Of a DNA stretch of 37,534 nucleotides, positions 6,723-11,175 are shown piece by piece. This DNA comes from Gemmatimonadales bacterium. GTDB taxonomy: Bacteria; Gemmatimonadota; Gemmatimonadetes; Gemmatimonadales; GWC2-71-9. The DNA lies in assembly GCA_036377655.1 (NCBI GenBank), contig DASUXZ010000098.1, positions 1 through 37,534 of the forward strand, written 5' to 3'. The notes below the pieces were generated by a model. It did no database searches and was not told where the DNA came from. It saw only the letters and a program-made list of their open reading frames with translations. Positions within the stretch are counted from its first letter, which is position 1. Each line of letters starts with the position of its first letter. A program made the position numbers and the translations under genes.

Positions 6723-8396
6723 GTGACCTACCCGCATCTGCGCCCCGGCCGCGCGGCCGAATTGTCCCTGCACGCCCCGAACGCCGCTCTCCTCATCGAC
6801 TTCGACAACGTGACGCTGGGGATCCGCTCGGATCTCACCAAGGAGCTCCGCACGCTCCTCAACAGCGACATCATCAAGGGGAAAGTGGCCGTTCAGCGCG
6901 CCTATGCCGACTGGCGGCGCTACCCGCAGTACATCGTGCCCCTCTCCGAATCGTCGATCGACCTCATCTTCGCGCCGGCCTTCGGCACGAGCAAGAAGAA
7001 CGCGACCGACATCCGCCTCGCGATCGATGCGATCGAGCTCGTCTTCACGCGGCCCGAGATCGGGACGTTCATCATCATGTCGGGGGACAGCGACTTCTCG
7101 ACGATGGTGATCAAGCTCAAGGAGTACGGGAAGTACGTGATCGGCGTCGGCATCCGCGAGTCGGCGAGCGACCTGCTGATCCAGAACTGCGACGAGTACT
7201 ACTCCTACAGCGACCTCGCCGGGCTCTCCCGCGAGGGAGAGACGCCCTCGATCCAGCGCGATCCATGGGAGCTCGTCGGCGAAGCCATCGCGCAGATGGC
7301 GCGGAACGGCGACGTCATGCGCTCCGACCGCCTCAAGCAGGTGATGCAGCAGATCGATTCCAACTTCGACGAGCGGAACGCAGGCTTCAGCCGCTTCAGC
7401 AAGTTCGTGGTCGAGGCGGGACAGAAGGGACTCCTCCAGGTCACCAAGCTCGAAAACGGCCAGTACGAGGTCGCGCCGCCGGCGGCGCGCGGCGGCCGTG
7501 CGGAGGCGGCCCGCCCGGCCGAGCCGGCGGGGCGCGGACGGGAGGAAAGCCGGAGCCGCGAGGAAGGCCGGAGCCGCGAGGAAGGCCGGAGTCGCGAGGA
7601 GGGCCGCACCCGGGACGAGGGACGTGGCCGGGGCCGGGGCCGCGGGCGCGGCCGGGGACGCGAGCGGGAGCGGGAGGAGCAGCCGGCGGCGCAGTCTGCC
7701 GCCCCGGCCGCGCGCCGCACCGACGGCACGCTCTCGCTCGCGCGCGCGTTCCAGCTCCTGACCGATGCGCTCGCGGAGCTCGGCGGTCCCGTATCGGCGG
7801 AACAGCTCCGCGGCCGGATGGCGGCGCTGCACGGGCGCGAGGACCCGCTGCTCGAGACGAGCCGGTTCGCACGGCTCCTCCGGCAGGCCAACGACGCCGA
7901 AGTCGCCGACGTGCGGAAGGTGGGAGACGACGACTACGAGGTTGCGCTGCATCGCCGGCCCGGAATGCCCGCCGCCCCGAAGCCGCCCGCCACGCCTGCG
8001 GCGGAGGCATCGGGCCCCAACGGCGCCGCGCCGGCCGCGCCTGCCGCGCCGACCGAGCAATCCGGCTCGATCTTCCGCCCAGGCCTCCGGTTCCGCCGCG
8101 GTTCGCGCGCTCCCATGCGGACGGCCGAGATCCCGCTCGTCGGCGTGGTGAGCATCGAGCCGCCGGCACCGGCGGCGCCCGAGGCACCGGCCGCCGAGGC
8201 CGCCCGCGAAGCGCCGGCCGAGAAGGCGGCGGGATCCGGCAAGTCGAAATCCGCGCGCGCCCCGCGAAAGTCCGCAAAGCGCGCCAAGGCAGCCGCGCCG
8301 GCTGCCGCCCCGGACGAAGCGCCCGCCGCGGAGGCGCCCGCCGAGGCACGACCGGCCAGAAAGCGCGCGAAGCCACGCGCGCGAAAGTCGGAGTGA
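6723..8396 (+). CDS. NYN (LabA-like PIN nuclease) domain protein with two OST-HTH/LOTUS domains, an Arg-rich repeat linker and a Lys/Ala/Pro-rich tail
   Basis: GTG start at 6723. NYN motifs are ALLIDFDNV, AYADW, KKNATDIRLAIDAIELV and FIIMSGDSDFSTMVIKLKEYGKYVIGVG. LOTUS-like 1 reads AIAQMARNGDVMRSDRLKQVMQQIDSNFDERNAGFSRFSKFVVEAGQKGLLQV. LOTUS-like 2 reads LARAFQLLTDALAELGGPVSAEQLRGRMAALHG...SRFARLLRQANDAEVADV. The linker is EESRSREEGRSREEGRSREEGRTRDEGRGRGRGRGRGRGREREREE. The tail is KSKSARAPRKSAKRAKAAAPAAAP...RKRAKPRARKSE. Confidence 0.8.
   Translation: MTYPHLRPGRAAELSLHAPNAALLIDFDNVTLGIRSDLTKELRTLLNSDIIKGKVAVQRAYADWRRYPQYIVPLSESSIDLIFAPAFGTSKKNATDIRLAIDAIELVFTRPEIGTFIIMSGDSDFSTMVIKLKEYGKYVIGVGIRESASDLLIQNCDEYYSYSDLAGLSREGETPSIQRDPWELVGEAIAQMARNGDVMRSDRLKQVMQQIDSNFDERNAGFSRFSKFVVEAGQKGLLQVTKLENGQYEVAPPAARGGRAEAARPAEPAGRGREESRSREEGRSREEGRSREEGRTRDEGRGRGRGRGRGRGREREREEQPAAQSAAPAARRTDGTLSLARAFQLLTDALAELGGPVSAEQLRGRMAALHGREDPLLETSRFARLLRQANDAEVADVRKVGDDDYEVALHRRPGMPAAPKPPATPAAEASGPNGAAPAAPAAPTEQSGSIFRPGLRFRRGSRAPMRTAEIPLVGVVSIEPPAPAAPEAPAAEAAREAPAEKAAGSGKSKSARAPRKSAKRAKAAAPAAAPDEAPAAEAPAEARPARKRAKPRARKSE
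7542..7679 (+). repeat. In-frame 18-nt tandem repeat degenerating into (RG)n and (RE)n codon repeats
   Basis: The units are gaggaaagccggagccgc / gaggaaggccggagccgc / gaggaaggccggagtcgc / gaggagggccgcacccgg / gacgagggacgtggccgg. They are followed by ggccggggccgcgggcgcggccggggacgc and gagcgggagcgggaggag. The phase matches the 6723 reading frame. Confidence 0.85.
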
Positions 8397-8992
8397 GGAA
8401 GGCGCGACGGGCAGCCACGCTGCCCGTTCGCTTTTTTGCCCGGCCGGCCGAGGTGGTCGCCCGGGAGCTGGTCGGGACGGTCATGCGATCGGAGATCGGC
8501 GGCGTCGTGACCGCAGGACGGATCGTCGAGACCGAGGCCTATCTCGGCGCCGAGGATCCGGCGGCGCACGGCTATCTCGGCCGCCGCAACGCGAGGAACG
8601 CCTCGATCTTCGGGCCACCCGCGACCTGGTACGTGTACCTCTCCTACGGCATGCACTGGTGCGCCAATCTCGTCGCAGCGCGCGAGGGGGAGGCCGCGGC
8701 AGTCCTGGTCCGCGCGCTCGAGCCGCTCGAGGGGATCGAGACGATGCGGGCGCGCCGGCGCGGGGTGCCCGACCGGCACCTCTGCGCCGGTCCGGGGCGT
8801 CTCTGCGAGGCCCTCGGCATCACCCGCGAGCTCGACGGCACCGTCATGGCCAGGTCGCCCGTTTCGGTCCTTCGGGACGGGGTACCCCGTCCCGAGGTCC
8901 GGGTGACACCCCGCATCGGCATCACGAAGGCCGCGGACTGGCCGCTGCGCTTCGTGCTGGCCGGCACCCGGTGGGCGTCCCGGGGCGGCTGA
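8393..8992 (+). CDS. mpg: 3-methyladenine (alkylpurine) DNA glycosylase, AAG/Mpg family
   Basis: Motifs: FFARPAEVVARELVG, GRIVETEAYLGAEDPAAHG, GPPATWYVYLSYGMHWCANLV, VLVRALEP and LCAGPGRLCEALGI. The GTG at 8393 overlaps the upstream TGA (GTGA). The track ORF 6563..8992 is only real in its last ~200 codons. Confidence 0.85.
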   Translation: MRKARRAATLPVRFFARPAEVVARELVGTVMRSEIGGVVTAGRIVETEAYLGAEDPAAHGYLGRRNARNASIFGPPATWYVYLSYGMHWCANLVAAREGEAAAVLVRALEPLEGIETMRARRRGVPDRHLCAGPGRLCEALGITRELDGTVMARSPVSVLRDGVPRPEVRVTPRIGITKAADWPLRFVLAGTRWASRGG

Positions 8993-9054: not shown

Positions 9055-11175
9055 ATGAAGGTCCTTCCGCTTTGCGTACTCGTCATTTCGGCAACGATCG
9101 GTATCGCGGCGCCGGCCGAGGCCCAGGTCGCGGCGAAACCGGTGCGCGCGGAGGCGCGCGATTCCTTCGCGGGTGCGGTGAAGGAGTTCGGCACGATGTG
9201 GACCTTCGACGCCCCCCCGCTCGCCTACTGGAAGGCGCGCTACGGCTTCGCGCCGGAGCCGGGCTGGCTCGACAACGTGCGCCTCGCCTCGATCCGGCTG
9301 CCCAACTGCTCGGCATCGTTCGTGTCCGCGCGCGGGCTCGTCATGACGAACCACCACTGCGCGCGCGCCTGCATTTCCGCGAATTCGCCTGCCGACACGA
9401 ACTACCAGCGAACCGGCTTCGTCGCGCGGACGCTCGAGGAAGAGAAGCGGTGCGCGGGACTCTACGTCGATCAGCTCGTCGGGGTCGAGGACGTCACCGC
9501 CCGCATCCGGTCGCAGGTCACCGCCACGGCGCCGGCGGCGCAGGTGGAGCAGCGGCAGGCCGCGATCGCGTCGATCATGTCCCCGTGCCAGGAGTCGGGG
9601 CAGATCTGCCAGGTGGTGATGTTCTACCAGGGCGCGATGTATTCACTCTACCGCTACCGGCGCTACGACGACGTCCGCCTCGTGATGGCCCCGGAAGAGG
9701 AGGTCAGCTTCTTCGGCGGCGATCCCGACAACTTCACCTATCCCCGCTACGCGCTCGACCTCACGCTGCTTCGCGTCTACGACGCCGGCGCGCCGTTCGC
9801 GCCCCGCAACTACCTCCGGTGGAGCGCCGACGGGCCGAAGGAGGGCGAGCTCGTCTTCGTCACCGGGAATCCCGGCTCCACCGGCCGCCTGCTCACGCTC
9901 GCGCAGATGGAGTACCTCCGCGACGTGCAGTATCCCGCCCAGCTCGACCTGCTCGCGCGCAACATCGCGTTCTACAAGGAGCTCTCGAGCGCGAGCGAGG
10001 CGGCGCGCCGACAGTACGAGAACCAGGTGTTCAGCCTCGAGAATGCGCAGAAGGCCATCACCGGGTACCGCGCAGGGCTGCTCGACTCGACCATCATGGC
10101 GCGCAAGGCGGCGTTCGAGCGCGAGGTGCGCGCCAAGGTGGCGGCCGATCCCTCGCTGCGCTCTCGCTTCGGCGGTGCCTGGGACGACATCGCGAGGGCG
10201 CAGGCCGAGCTCGCCCGCATCAATGTGCGCGCCCGATACTACGGGTTCGGCGGATCGCAGCTCCTCAACTACGCGGGCGGGATCGTGCGACTCCCTGCCC
10301 AGGCGGGTCTCCCCGACTCGCTCAGGCTTCCCCAGTACCGCGGGCGCGCGATCGACGCCGTCCGCCAGCAGCTCCTCGCCGACGCCCCGGTCGATCCGGA
10401 CATCGAGAAGCAGACTCTGGCCGCGCAGCTGACCGCCGCCCGCCGCGAGCTCCCGGCGAACGATCCCTTCCTGCAGGCCGTGCTCCAGGGCCGGAGCCCG
10501 GAGGTCGCCGCGGAAGCGCTCGTCGAGGGGACGCGGCTCGCCGATGCGGCGGTCCGCCGGCGGCTGGTGGACGGCGGCAGCGCTGCGGCAGCCGCGTCCG
10601 ACGATCCGATGATCGTCCTGGCGCGCCGGATCGAGCCGATCGCGCGCGAGGTCGGGATGCAGGCGGCCAGGCAGGAAGCGATCATCTCGGCGAACGGGGA
10701 GAAGGTCGGTCAGGCGCTGTTCGCGGCGTACGGCACGTCGCTCCCACCCGATGCCACCTTCACGCTCCGGATCTCGGACGGCATCGTGCGGGGCTTCCCC
10801 ATGAACGGGACGATCGCGCCCTATCGCACGACGTTCTACGGCCTGTACGGCCGCTCGGCGGACTTCGACGACGAGCCGCCCTTCCACCTTCCCGCGCGCT
10901 GGCGCGAGGCCGAATCACGCATCGCGCTCGGCCAGTCGCTCAACTTCGTCTCGACCAACGACATCATCGGCGGCAATTCCGGCAGCCCGGTCATCAACCG
11001 GAACGCGGAGGTCGTCGGGCTGATCTTCGACGGCAACATCGAGTCGCTCCCGAACCGCTTCATCTTCACCGACGAAGTCGCGCGCTCGGTGAGCGTGCAC
11101 TCGGAGGGAATCCTCGAGGCGCTGCGAAGCGTGTACGGCGCCGCTCGGATCGCGGAAGAGCTCGAGGGCAGGTAG
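9055..11175 (+). CDS. Secreted S46-family serine peptidase (dipeptidyl-peptidase 7/11-like)
   Basis: ATG at 9055. Signal peptide MKVLPLCVLVISATIGIAAPAEAQ. Family-typical motifs are GTMWTFD, CSASFVSARGLVMTNHHCA (catalytic His) and IIGGNSGSPVINRNAEVVGLIFDGN (catalytic Ser). Confidence 0.85.
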   Translation: MKVLPLCVLVISATIGIAAPAEAQVAAKPVRAEARDSFAGAVKEFGTMWTFDAPPLAYWKARYGFAPEPGWLDNVRLASIRLPNCSASFVSARGLVMTNHHCARACISANSPADTNYQRTGFVARTLEEEKRCAGLYVDQLVGVEDVTARIRSQVTATAPAAQVEQRQAAIASIMSPCQESGQICQVVMFYQGAMYSLYRYRRYDDVRLVMAPEEEVSFFGGDPDNFTYPRYALDLTLLRVYDAGAPFAPRNYLRWSADGPKEGELVFVTGNPGSTGRLLTLAQMEYLRDVQYPAQLDLLARNIAFYKELSSASEAARRQYENQVFSLENAQKAITGYRAGLLDSTIMARKAAFEREVRAKVAADPSLRSRFGGAWDDIARAQAELARINVRARYYGFGGSQLLNYAGGIVRLPAQAGLPDSLRLPQYRGRAIDAVRQQLLADAPVDPDIEKQTLAAQLTAARRELPANDPFLQAVLQGRSPEVAAEALVEGTRLADAAVRRRLVDGGSAAAAASDDPMIVLARRIEPIAREVGMQAARQEAIISANGEKVGQALFAAYGTSLPPDATFTLRISDGIVRGFPMNGTIAPYRTTFYGLYGRSADFDDEPPFHLPARWREAESRIALGQSLNFVSTNDIIGGNSGSPVINRNAEVVGLIFDGNIESLPNRFIFTDEVARSVSVHSEGILEALRSVYGAARIAEELEGR

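Follow-up and report, generated by a model that had tools for sequence, protein, structure and literature searches.

A Gemmatimonadota NYN–LOTUS protein with an arginine–glycine box, predicted to be an endoribonuclease and encoded next to an MPG-type DNA glycosylase

We analysed a stretch of DNA of 37,534 nucleotides from a Gemmatimonadales bacterium (contig DASUXZ010000098.1, assembly GCA_036377655.1), in the following referred to as the window. It contains a gene for a 557-residue protein in which an NYN domain, a first LOTUS module, a linker with a run of Arg-Gly dipeptides (RG box), a second LOTUS module and a basic tail follow one another, an architecture common to all 26 sequences of our alignment A1. 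Homologous protein clusters number more than 6,000, the best 120 of them being 505–625 aa long, and given this number and the strongly conserved alignment, the open reading frame is a real gene. The reading frame and all sequence strings quoted for it in a preliminary description of the locus could be found in the 557-residue translation. Directly downstream lies the gene of an MPG/AAG-type 3-methyladenine DNA glycosylase (MPG). The features discussed below are:

6723–8396, + strand: complete open reading frame, 557 aa, GTG start, TGA stop (ORF list)
6783–7205, + strand: NYN domain (LabA/LK-nuclease type, PIN-like), residues 21–161 (Pfam PF01936)
7260–7478, + strand: LOTUS/OST-HTH module 1 (minimal LOTUS), residues 180–252 (Pfam OST-HTH borderline, AF2)
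7479–7730, + strand: disordered basic linker, residues 253–336, net charge +7, pI 11.5 (AF2 pLDDT <50, composition)
7542–7606, + strand: 18-bp in-frame tandem repeat, (EE[SG]RSR)x3 and the start of EEGRTR (TRF)
7620–7661, + strand: conserved RG box GRGRGRGRGRGRGR, residues 300–313 (alignment A1)
7731–7952, + strand: LOTUS-like module 2 (divergent winged helix), residues 337–410 (AF2, hhalign to module 1)
7953–8393, + strand: disordered Ala/Pro/Arg/Lys-rich basic tail, residues 411–557, net charge +14, pI 11.4 (AF2 pLDDT <50, composition)
8088–8150, + strand: short linear motif RFRRGSR (residues 456–462) … IPLVGVV (470–476) (alignment A1)
8358–8393, + strand: conserved basic C-terminal end RKRAKPRARKSE, residues 546–557 (alignment A1)
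8393–8992, + strand: MPG gene (Pfam Pur_DNA_glyco, E 1.2e-63)
8406–8437, + strand: terminator-like hairpin GACGGGCAGC-CAC-GCTGCCCGTT with T-run, in MPG codons 5–15 (consensus scan)

The NYN domain matches Pfam PF01936 with an E-value of 1.9e-24 and 87.3 bits against a cut-off of 24.2, covering profile positions 2–143 of 145. The active-site pattern of such domains comprises an Asp at the end of β1 with an Asn three residues on, an Asp at the end of β2, an Asp at the start of α3 and S-x-D at the end of β4; the predicted catalytic residues are D26 (with N29), D63, D96 and S120/D122 (and D124), found in DFDN (residues 26–29), TDIRLAIDA (95–103) and SGDSDF (120–125), while D63 (in YADW) is placed from its position alone. 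None of these residues varies among the 26 sequences of A1, and the DFDN and SGDSDF motifs occur in 70 of 70 orthologues, which together with the Pfam match bears out the earlier assignment of an NYN domain that keeps the acidic residues of a PIN-like RNase. The NYN profile A6 furthermore matches VPA0982 (2qip, E 5e-13) and the NYN domain of MARF1 (6fdl, E 1.3e-3), with correspondence of the Asp residues: D26/N29, D96 and S120/D122 pair with their VPA0982 counterparts, and D96 and S120/D122 with those of MARF1 as well. D26, D96 and D122 fall at the equivalents of VPA0982 D14/D92/D115 and human MARF1 D358/D426/D452, following the residue equivalences given in PMC11346440. From the homology to 2qip, an α/β/α PIN-like fold is expected. 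The AF2 model of this part (residues 1–173) is of low confidence with a pLDDT of 30–60, since the alignment is nearly invariant there and hence shallow.

Both modules that follow the NYN domain are modelled by AF2 as winged helices of about 75 residues in the order α1-α2-α3-β1-β2, which is that of the LOTUS fold, where about 80 residues form a winged helix-turn-helix from three helices and two subsequent strands. In module 1 (pLDDT >90) the helices span residues 181–195, 201–211 and 225–234 and the strands 239–242 and 248–251; in module 2 (pLDDT >90) they span 339–353, 359–370 and 379–391, and 395–399 and 405–409, respectively, and the same order was kept when module 2 was modelled alone (pLDDT 86.7). 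Against Pfam OST-HTH (PF12872), which has a cut-off of 23.8 bits, module 1 reaches 22.0 bits in isolation and 18.5 in the full protein, and OST-HTH is its top family in 52 of 53 orthologues, with a best E-value of 9.6e-6. None of 50 members of module 2 matched OST-HTH, even at E <= 1. Aligned to module 1 by hhalign, module 2 reaches 95% probability and an E-value of 3.7e-8 over 71 columns, and its profile recovers the second modules of the distant relatives P0260 and P0270, for which OST-HTH is the sole Pfam match (E 5e-4 to 1e-3) and which as whole proteins exceed the OST-HTH cut-off with 32.9 and 36.7 bits. Module 2 is tied to OST-HTH only transitively, via module 1 and these two relatives, and we propose that it is a divergent duplicate of module 1. 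A Foldseek search of both modules against the PDB gave no match at E <= 0.001. The LOTUS domain of TDRD7 (3rco) fits module 2 with TMq 0.69 and TMt 0.72 and the two modules with TMt 0.72–0.73, and winged helices of Fur/Zur, ORC/Cdc6 and RosR, those of Fur/Zur and ORC/Cdc6 being DNA-binding, rank with or above it; the fold search is unable to separate LOTUS from other winged helices here. Of the two LOTUS modules claimed in the preliminary description, the presence of two mutually homologous winged helices in LOTUS order is upheld, while the family call is weaker than was claimed, with module 1 below the cut-off and module 2 devoid of a direct match.

The same description had presented NYN plus LOTUS as the hallmark of MARF1, which overstates the novelty: the combination itself is not new in bacteria, where NYN with one or two LOTUS domains is a stereotypical architecture described since 2010 (PMC2848206). 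Bacterial LOTUS domains have since been tested in vitro for binding of RNA G-quadruplexes (G4; PMC7498356), and a cyanobacterial NYN+OST-HTH protein co-purifies with Rbp3 (PMC12232666). The closest known system are the bacterial LK-nuclease (DUF88/NYN, COG1432 'LabA-like') proteins with OST-HTH (Anantharaman, Zhang & Aravind 2010, PMC2848206; NYN.COG1432, Matelska et al. 2017, PMC5499597), which, like the window protein, are predicted to be standalone RNA-degradation enzymes; single-LOTUS relatives from Burkholderiales share 35–37% identity with the window protein over NYN and LOTUS-1 and also carry basic disordered tails. Unlike these proteins, the window family possesses a second LOTUS module too divergent for Pfam, an RG box between the modules and the RFRRGSR…PLVGVV motif, and whereas the 2010 survey found no conserved neighbourhood links to other known RNA-processing systems (PMC2848206), it has MPG as a fixed neighbour.

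By architecture, NYN with two LOTUS domains, the protein can further be likened to Arabidopsis DNE1 (DCP1-associated NYN endoribonuclease 1), an experimentally supported endoribonuclease with cleavage sites beside a G-rich motif (PMC10226599). DNE1, however, is eukaryotic, has the decapping factor DCP1 as partner and has no reported inter-LOTUS RG box or basic Ala/Pro tail. Mammalian MARF1/limkain-b1 is likewise an NYN endoribonuclease, which for its activity depends on four aspartates and on the LOTUS region; our NYN profile aligns to its NYN domain such that the catalytic D and S-x-D coincide, and its LOTUS domains, like those of the window protein, are minimal ones. Its two RRMs, eight LOTUS domains and decapping-complex-binding C-terminal region (PMC6294520) are absent from the window protein, in which Pfam finds no RRM and only two LOTUS-like modules are present, and its NYN domain is grouped in NYN.1, a eukaryote-specific cluster, instead of COG1432 (PMC5499597). 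On these grounds a MARF1 orthologue was ruled out, and the likeness to MARF1 appears to be one of function and architecture, not of orthology.

The two LOTUS modules are separated by a linker that carries a net positive charge in every one of the 52 parsable orthologues (minimum +1, median +5). Its low-complexity part starts with (EE[SG]RSR)x3 at residues 274–291 and a degenerate fourth copy, EEGRTR, detected by TRF as 65 bp of period 18 with 3.6 copies and 93% matches, continues with the RG box and ends with (RE)x3 (residues 313–318, up to 7676). All three elements had been pointed out before; the RG run alone among them is conserved, and it holds six RG dipeptides, not the five that were counted. 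The acidic/basic repeat is missing in most orthologues, is partial in P0002/P0004 and has a similar counterpart, (EGRESR)x4, in L054. These shorter or similar versions in orthologues argue against a misassembled repeat, an explanation raised at the outset, and the (EEGRSR)x3 block is a recent expansion confined to a minority of sequences in a few lineages. In the RG box, R305, R307, G308, G310 and R311, followed by R315, are invariant in A1, and a run of at least seven residues of R and G alone is found in 66 of 70 orthologues; the deep relatives P0213, P0220 and P0236 have no such run in the linker. An RGG/RG box is a disordered stretch in which at least three RG or RGG units lie close together. 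The window protein, with six consecutive RG dipeptides in a segment of pLDDT <50, falls under what is reportedly the usual 'tri-RG' definition of Thandapani et al. in 2013. It shares with eukaryotic RGG/RG motifs the disorder and the position beside predicted RNA-binding domains; in contrast to RGG boxes proper, it has an RG run with RGG occurring just once (residues 255–257), and the boxes of the orthologues mix RRG, RGR and RGG.

The tail, too, has a net positive charge, again throughout the 52 parsable orthologues (median +9.5). It had been compared to tails of the histone H1/AlgP type, which are Lys-rich, carry regular KPAA/AKKA-type repeats and are recognisable by profile. The stretch KSKSARAPRKSAKRAKAAAP (residues 507–526) illustrates the resemblance, which holds for composition; Pfam and NCBIfam gave no match on residues 411–557 beyond a low-complexity valS artefact, Arg outnumbers Lys (17 R, 10 K) and the DNA repeats are weak and short, so that an assignment to this type was rejected. 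Two short elements of the tail are conserved. In the RFRRGSR…IPLVGVV motif, R456, F457, R458, R459, G460, R462, G474 and V476 are invariant in A1, RF[RK]RG[SA]R occurs in 51 of 70 orthologues and recognisable variants persist in the deep relatives P0246, P0260 and P0270. The C-terminal end has the family consensus KRPRARxRKKAE, and about half of the orthologues show R.R..[RK]K within their last 14 residues.

Linker and tail together make up 231 of 557 residues (~40%), are disordered and strongly basic, and are flanked by acidic folded domains. This composition, with the conserved positive charge, the RG run in most orthologues and charge-patterned E/R repeats recurring in several lineages, would also suit a condensate scaffold that phase-separates in an RNA-dependent manner by virtue of its RG box, alternating-charge repeats and basic tail, with the NYN domain degrading RNA in bodies like P-bodies or BR-bodies; it is the RNA-granule idea of the preliminary description. 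Precedents exist in the germ granules organised by eukaryotic LOTUS proteins and in RNase E of alpha-proteobacteria, whose C-terminal disordered region, long, charge-patterned and Arg-rich as well, drives RNA-dependent condensates, so that condensate-forming bacterial RNases are already known (BR-bodies, e.g. PMC11321048). The catalytic fold of RNase E is unrelated to NYN, however, its disordered region scaffolds the degradosome, and the window protein is likened to it from composition alone. With the repeat block not conserved, three deep relatives without the RG run, and single-LOTUS Burkholderiales relatives being basic-tailed too, where tails may simply raise RNA affinity, we consider a primary role as condensate scaffold unlikely.

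On sequence grounds, the variant with two LOTUS modules and an RG box is restricted to Gemmatimonadota. The module-2 form is rare, with 207 cluster representatives among 1.84 billion, every named member belonging to this phylum, and among the Gemmatimonadota genomes recovered both the gene and its synteny are conserved. Specific to the Gemmatimonadota variant are the second divergent LOTUS, the RG box, the RFRRGSR…PLVGVV motif and the phylum-wide pairing with MPG. A role in anti-phage defence was discarded: PADLOC models matched neither the NYN protein nor MPG (0 families each), and, in contrast to typical defence islands, the gene occurs widely across the phylum and in conserved synteny. G4-based autoregulation finds no support either, because a canonical G4 motif is present in the gene's own mRNA in just 16 of 70 orthologues.

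Alongside the observed domain identities, the conservation of catalytic residues, RG box and basic charge, the restriction to one phylum and the gene pairing, we favour with some confidence a model in which the protein is a divalent-metal-dependent endoribonuclease of the LabA/LK-nuclease clade, likely acting on G-rich or structured RNA, with MPG in its operon. The N-terminal NYN domain would provide the active site of D26, D63, D96 and D122 with N29 and S120, and substrates would be captured by four elements that would bind nucleic acid, strung together like beads, namely the two minimal LOTUS domains, the Arg-Gly box in the linker between them and the long basic tail. The contrast between acidic folded domains and strongly basic disordered segments makes it probable that RNA is bound multivalently and for the most part by electrostatic attraction. 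RNase activity and RNA rather than DNA as the substrate are suggested by characterised homologues: in mouse MARF1, D178, D215, D246 and D272 are each needed for RNA cleavage and removal of the LOTUS region abolishes it (PMC6217404), and a CRISPR-associated bacterial NYN protein is a Mn-dependent endoribonuclease (PMC11346440). A preference for G-rich or structured single-stranded RNAs, which should abound in an organism of 71% G+C, is probable by analogy with MARF1, with DNE1, which cleaves adjoining a G-rich YGGWG motif (PMC10226599), and with LOTUS domains including bacterial TP0894, which bind G-rich/G4 RNA and do not prefer DNA G4; the second of the two bacterial domains assayed, NE0665, showed no binding of G4 RNA (PMC7498356). 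In the literature searched, we found no biochemistry on any family member or full-length bacterial NYN–LOTUS protein.

The RNase might instead be associated with ribosomes or with rRNA/tRNA, serving stable-RNA maturation or ribosome-dependent mRNA decay as does B. subtilis Rae1/YacP, with the basic disordered segments docking on ribosomes and neither G-rich recognition nor condensates involved, which we regard as quite unlikely. Rae1 is of a different NYN subfamily without LOTUS domains, and no rRNA, tRNA or ribosomal-protein genes are neighbours in the window or the related loci. Conservation and synteny among the recovered genomes would nevertheless befit a housekeeping function, and Rae1/YacP is a ribosome-dependent NYN endoribonuclease according to the passages citing it in PMC6294520 and PMC11346440. 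Synechocystis Slr1870 (NYN+OST-HTH) came down with Rbp3 in a co-immunoprecipitation in which ribosomal proteins were enriched as well (PMC12232666), and gene neighbourhoods link bacterial NYN genes to tRNA/rRNA maturation genes (PMC5499597).

Bacterial NYN–LOTUS proteins occur widely and are regarded as ancestral to MARF1 and DNE1. The strong conservation across the recovered Gemmatimonadota genomes sharply defines elements for their study (catalytic Asp, two LOTUS modules, RG box, short motif), and since RG boxes and LOTUS domains are both reported to favour G-rich/G4 RNA, an RG box between two LOTUS domains in a host of 71% G+C makes combined recognition possible. If RNase activity and G-rich preference hold true, the bacterial branch would gain its first functional assignment, with a bearing on how LOTUS-based RNA recognition arose; if not, a corrected annotation is still gained, comprising a second LOTUS missed by Pfam and an operon with a terminator embedded in coding sequence.

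The GTG start of MPG overlaps the stop of the NYN gene by 4 nt (GTGA, 8393–8396), so that the reported overlap with a glycosylase gene is correct, and its product is of the MPG type. That overlap had been mentioned only in passing. MPG lies directly downstream of the NYN gene in 70 of 80 related loci, with a GTGA, ATGA or TTGA stop/start overlap in 51 of the 70, and it still directly follows in five deep relatives whose other flanks differ. No other contextual feature of the NYN–LOTUS gene is as well conserved as its adjacency to MPG, and the two form a phylum-wide two-gene unit, which suggests sensitivity to alkylation damage as a testable phenotype. It should be noted that MPG acts on DNA and not on RNA, which counts against the RNase reading.

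The protein could accordingly be imagined as a DNA-repair nuclease that works with MPG, e.g. on base-excision-repair intermediates or flaps at alkylation lesions, and is tethered to the nucleoid by its winged helices together with the RG box and the H1-like tail. DNA and RNA alike are possible ligands of basic Ala/Pro/Lys/Arg tails. Besides MPG as the one constant neighbour, usually with the 4-nt overlap even where other flanks are different, this would be in line with the FEN/5'-3' DNA nucleases included in the PIN-like superfamily, with the DNA-binding winged helices among the top Foldseek matches of the modules and with an NYN gene beside the uracil-DNA glycosylase Udg4 in Gluconacetobacter (PMC5499597). 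However, all characterised LabA/LK-type NYN proteins (MARF1, DNE1, B. fragilis NYN) are RNases, LOTUS domains favoured RNA over DNA G4 (PMC7498356), and the Foldseek ranking does not discriminate, as no match reached E <= 0.001 and the TDRD7 LOTUS gave one of the better fits over a whole domain. Adjacency of the genes is evidence of co-expression and not of a common substrate, and the out-of-phylum NYN–LOTUS relatives L081 and L082 have no glycosylase neighbour. We therefore hold DNA repair as the task of the nuclease itself to be improbable and retain the endoribonuclease reading.

Both activities might be joined in a functional module of NYN–LOTUS–RG protein and MPG, an RNA-directed nuclease coupled to base excision repair, a highly speculative proposal to which we assign very little weight. 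The nuclease would recognise G-rich, G4 or R-loop RNA and could clear alkylation-damaged or lesion-stalled transcripts or RNA:DNA hybrids where the glycosylase works, with RG box and basic tail concentrating nuclease and glycosylase on nucleic acid, perhaps in the form of a condensate, and the hairpin in the MPG start would be a translation-sensitive attenuator setting the ratio of the two proteins. Independently of such a module, the hairpin may have a regulatory role in the endoribonuclease model: given the stop/start overlap in most genomes and the hairpin in the window's clade, MPG is probably made from the same transcript at a lower, translation-coupled level. RNA folding of 8385–8445 yields -37.5 kcal/mol with a z-score of -5.1. 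The terminator-like hairpin inside the first MPG codons is a feature of the clade to which the window belongs, its core being found in 41 related loci, where the rare codons GCA and TTT are used.

The NYN-LOTUS ORF at 6723..8396 (+) has a GTG start, encodes 557 aa and, judged by the comparisons presented here, is a real, strongly conserved gene, for whose product a predicted metal-dependent endoribonuclease is the best-supported reading. Recruitment of the enzyme to RNA would fall to a pair of LOTUS domains together with the RG box and the basic tail. Among 8,000 candidates scored in a search of 5.8 billion proteins, 6,352 matched; the best 120 of these are 505-625 aa long, and wherever the source name gives an organism it is Gemmatimonadota or Gemmatimonadales. 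Scanning one genome per species yielded at least 548 genomes with a relative of the gene, the best 80 loci all lying in Gemmatimonadota MAGs. In an alignment of 26 sequences almost no variation is seen in the NYN domain or in helical module 1, and the second module (residues 337-406), the RG run of the linker, the RFRRGSR…IPLVGVV motif of the tail and the basic C-terminal end are also conserved; the remaining linker and tail vary freely in sequence and length. DFDN and SGDSDF occur in 70/70 complete orthologues. The observation made in the preliminary description was confirmed and its interpretation supported in part: all peptide strings quoted there were found at the expected positions, and the reported overlap with the DNA glycosylase gene is real, TGA and GTG sharing the tetranucleotide GTGA. 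G+C content is about 71% throughout the window.

The nuclease domain matches Pfam NYN with E 1.9e-24. A profile built from the Gemmatimonadota family and two Burkholderiales relatives matched VPA0982 (2qip, E 5e-13) and the NYN domains of MARF1 (6fdl, E 1.3e-3; 5yaa, E 0.012), aligning D-x-x-N of VPA0982 with D26 and N29, the Asp of MARF1 'KNAAD' with D96, and MARF1 'S-T-D' with S120/D122. Since the literature equates D14/D92/D115 of VPA0982 with D358/D426/D452 of human MARF1 and D13/D118/D143 of a B. fragilis NYN protein (PMC11346440), D26, D96 and D122 are, by alignment, the putative equivalents of this set. Likewise D26/N29, D96 and S120/D122 would correspond to D178/D246/D272, N181 and S270 of mouse MARF1, mutation of which abolishes RNA cleavage (PMC6217404). 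D63, within YADW, is assigned by position as the probable second aspartate. All six residues (D26, N29, D63, D96, S120 and D122) are invariant in the 26-sequence alignment. Because the active-site residues align and are invariant, the NYN domain looks catalytically competent. The NYN part of the AlphaFold2 model reached a pLDDT of only 30-60, a consequence of how little the alignment varies in this stretch.

Both modules following the nuclease were modelled with high confidence, residues 180-252 (module 1) and 337-410 (module 2) each reaching pLDDT above 90 with the order helix-helix-helix-strand-strand; LOTUS domains have this winged helix-turn-helix topology. Neither carries an extra C-terminal helix, and both are therefore of the 'minimal' LOTUS type. 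Modelled alone from a shallow alignment of accepted fragments (A5), module 2 kept its topology at pLDDT 86.7. Module 1 scores just below the Pfam OST-HTH cut-off of 23.8 bits (22.0 in isolation, 18.5 in the full protein), and OST-HTH is the top family in 52/53 orthologous module-1 sequences (best E 9.6e-6). For module 2 a direct OST-HTH match was obtained in 0/50 sequences; profile-profile comparison relates it to module 1 (95% probability, E 3.7e-8, 71 columns). An exhaustive search of 1.84 billion proteins with the module-2 profile recovered the second modules of the distant homologues P0260 and P0270 at E of about 1e-6, fragments whose sole Pfam match is OST-HTH (E 5e-4 to 1e-3), and these two proteins as a whole exceed the OST-HTH cut-off at 32.9 and 36.7 bits with two matched stretches each. 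Foldseek against the PDB, with the full-length and module-2 models, gave generic winged-helix matches only, none at E <= 0.001, and LOTUS ranked no higher there than the DNA-binding winged helices of Fur/Zur, ORC/Cdc6 and RosR; the LOTUS domain of TDRD7 (3rco) is among the better whole-domain superpositions on module 2 (TMq 0.69, TMt 0.72). On the modelled structures, Foldseek thus confirms the winged-helix fold class and cannot prove LOTUS. PDB sequence searches with both module profiles returned nothing significant and no LOTUS structure, since LOTUS sequences are too divergent for that route. Sequence profiles and models together lead us to read module 1 as a probable, divergent LOTUS domain and module 2 as its duplicate, diverged still further. 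The earlier proposal of two LOTUS modules is sound in the main, the LOTUS assignment being weaker than it suggests, with module 1 just under the threshold and module 2 linked indirectly. Module 2 of this form is uncommon: at E <= 0.001 the 1.84 billion proteins yielded 207 cluster representatives, and every named member is from Gemmatimonadota.

Charge divides the protein between its folded and its disordered parts, and two further features lie within the latter:

Three folded domains: net charge negative, pI 5.0-5.5
Linker, residues 253-336: net charge +7, pI 11.5
Tail, residues 411-557: net charge +14, pI 11.4
7542-7606, + strand: 18-bp in-frame tandem repeat, 3.6 copies with 93% matches, coding for the acidic/basic hexapeptide block
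8088-8150, + strand (residues 456-476): linear motif RFRRGSR…IPLVGVV, near-invariant in close relatives within the otherwise variable tail

Since linker and tail are both net positive in 52/52 parsable orthologues (medians +5 and +9.5), positive charge is among the conserved properties of the disordered parts; the others are the RG box, a single short linear motif and a C-terminal end rich in K and R. A run of at least seven residues consisting of R and G only is present in 66/70 complete orthologues. RF[RK]RG[SA]R is found in 51/70, and variants of the whole motif, to which AlphaFold2 assigns no structure, are recognisable in the deepest relatives, e.g. LRFRRGTRG…PPPLLDGQ in P0260. The low-complexity block had been described as three EE[SG]RSR units followed by five RG dipeptides; the three units are present, followed by a degenerate fourth copy EEGRTR, but the RG dipeptides number six (residues 300-313). 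The comparison of the tail with H1/AlgP-type tails applies to composition, but no profile matches, Arg exceeds Lys and a regular repeat is missing. In the 26-sequence alignment the (EEGRSR)n block is limited to the window and a few relatives, where it is shorter, and is therefore a recent expansion rather than ancestral. At the same place in the linker, (EGRESR)x4 in L054 (a related locus; about residues 270-300) and (EEGRSR)x3 in the window occur in separate species, which suggests that in-frame repeats directly before the RG box expand recurrently or are unstable. Such disordered parts could be read by analogy with the disordered region of RNase E (PMC11321048), the protein then serving as a condensate scaffold, a reading we consider unlikely. 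At the nucleotide level, a canonical G-quadruplex (G4) motif at 7630-7657 (+), one of three on the + strand of the 37.5-kb window, falls exactly in the stretch coding for the RG box. Only 16/70 orthologues have one in the linker-coding stretch, so that GGN-CGN coding is the simplest explanation of the motif, and autoregulation through G4 was set aside.

RG/RGG boxes of eukaryotes are known G4 binders. LOTUS domains, including that of bacterial TP0894, are reported to prefer G-rich or G4 RNA over DNA G4 (PMC7498356), and Arabidopsis DNE1, with the same layout of NYN and two LOTUS domains as the Gemmatimonadota protein, cleaves next to a G-rich YGGWG motif (PMC10226599). By these analogies a preference for G-rich RNA is plausible in an organism of 71% G+C, and we would hold it tentatively, as clearly less likely than not. 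The broader endoribonuclease reading draws on DNE1, on the RNA preference of LOTUS domains and on MARF1, whose cleavage requires both the aspartates and the LOTUS region (PMC6217404). The protein might instead be an RNase linked to ribosomes or acting on stable RNA, in analogy to Rae1 (cited in PMC6294520, PMC11346440) and to Slr1870, recovered with Rbp3 in a pull-down in which ribosomal proteins were enriched too (PMC12232666); we regard this rival reading as improbable. A role in defence is unlikely, as the PADLOC defence-system models gave no match and the gene occurs widely, in syntenic position, across Gemmatimonadota.

In the window the gene follows an NtrC-type sigma-54 activator and a histidine kinase and precedes the MPG/AAG-type DNA glycosylase gene MPG (Pur_DNA_glyco, E 1.2e-63), a peptidase gene and an outer-membrane-like gene on the opposite strand:

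9067-11175, + strand: peptidase gene (S46, DPP7/DPP11-type), separating MPG from the outer-membrane-like gene

In 70/80 related loci MPG is the next gene downstream, on the same strand, most of the others stopping at a contig edge; in 51 of 70 loci the stop and start codons share GTGA, ATGA or TTGA. The two-component pair is upstream in 65/80 and absent from the most divergent loci; the outer-membrane-like gene follows MPG, likewise in 65/80. The S46 gene, with a counterpart in 0/80, was apparently inserted only in the lineage of the window. Five much more distant relatives (566-881 aa) have other flanks, with an AMP-binding enzyme gene immediately upstream in four (in L085 and L086 the two genes share 4 nt at the NYN start) and, in three, an HNH gene nearby (L085-L087). 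All five keep Pur_DNA_glyco directly after the NYN gene, overlapping or with a gap of <=7 nt; the whole family therefore shares NYN-LOTUS and MPG as a conserved pair. The 2010 account of bacterial NYN+OST-HTH genes (PMC2848206) reported none of the other known RNA-processing systems as a conserved neighbour, and in Gluconacetobacter an NYN gene adjoins that of another DNA glycosylase, Udg4 (PMC5499597). The protein could accordingly be imagined as a DNA-repair nuclease working with MPG, to which we assign a low probability. Apparent in-frame NYN-MPG fusions in two loci are artefacts, the ORF in L041 reading through a masked N run and that in L054 stemming from a frameshifted tail in a long-read MAG, so there is no Rosetta-stone evidence for the pair. 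Rfam and tRNA scans of the window found nothing, and the search for a sigma-70-like promoter around the gene was negative, a result that is uninformative for Gemmatimonadota.

The junction of the pair contains an additional element:

8406-8437, + strand: terminator-like hairpin, 10-bp GC-rich stem with 3-nt loop, then TTTTTT

It starts ten nucleotides past the NYN stop, within MPG codons 5-15, and the 61-nt region folds with -37.5 kcal/mol (z = -5.1). The core CGGGCAGC-loop-GCTGCCCG with T5-7 recurs in 41 related loci, all of the clade nearest the window, and is absent from divergent clades. Its codons are otherwise rare (GCA 18/306 Ala and TTT 2/73 Phe in five checked window genes), which speaks for selection acting on the nucleotide sequence, not on the MPG peptide alone. 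A covariation scan found eight core pairs invariant, with variation confined to the foot of the stem, where pairing is mostly kept, and shuffle controls not exceeded; the case for the hairpin comes from rare codons, stability and shape. We propose that it may act as a leaky intrinsic terminator or attenuator, which would lower MPG expression relative to the NYN protein, and a ribosome at the NYN stop might relieve termination.

The combination of NYN and LOTUS is not new, since it had already been described in 2010 (PMC2848206) and was restated in 2017 as common in bacteria and archaea (PMC5499597). Nor is the protein a MARF1 orthologue: it lacks RRMs and has two LOTUS domains, whereas MARF1 has eight (PMC6294520), and bacterial LabA-like NYN domains belong to the COG1432 cluster, in contrast to the eukaryote-specific NYN.1 of MARF1 (PMC5499597). 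Our literature search retrieved no paper on the Gemmatimonadota NYN-LOTUS family, and Gemmatimonas combined with NYN gave nothing relevant. What appears undescribed in the Gemmatimonadota variant is the second LOTUS that Pfam misses, the conserved RG box separating it from the first, the conserved linear motif of the tail, the invariant MPG pairing with its 4-nt stop/start overlap in most genomes, and the embedded terminator-like hairpin of one clade. Its main value lies in offering a well-defined starting point from which the function of the bacterial NYN-LOTUS branch could be studied for the first time.

The nearest annotated relatives outside the phylum, from Caballeronia (391 aa) and Eleftheria terrae (497 aa), are 35-37% identical over NYN and LOTUS-1, each with a single OST-HTH match below threshold and, after it, a long basic tail, which in Eleftheria contains RRGG-type motifs; basic disordered tails are therefore not unique to Gemmatimonadota. 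The Eleftheria comparison is a tblastn result, in place of direct BLASTP with the window protein, which gave low-complexity HSPs only. The deepest relatives, P0260 (829 aa) and P0270 (881 aa), with locus L083, contain several copies of an RRGRRGRGRE-type unit and an extra C-terminal segment with the helix-hairpin-helix-like sequence GVGKKTAETLLERFG, which received no Pfam call at E <= 0.1. A divergent subgroup (L048, L051, L056, L064, L077, L079) encodes orthologues of about 600 aa, in which poly-Gly/RG runs extend to about 22 residues and a conserved C-terminus, SFWSKVKRGLTGGA, replaces the KRPRARxRKKAE end, while the MPG pairing is retained.
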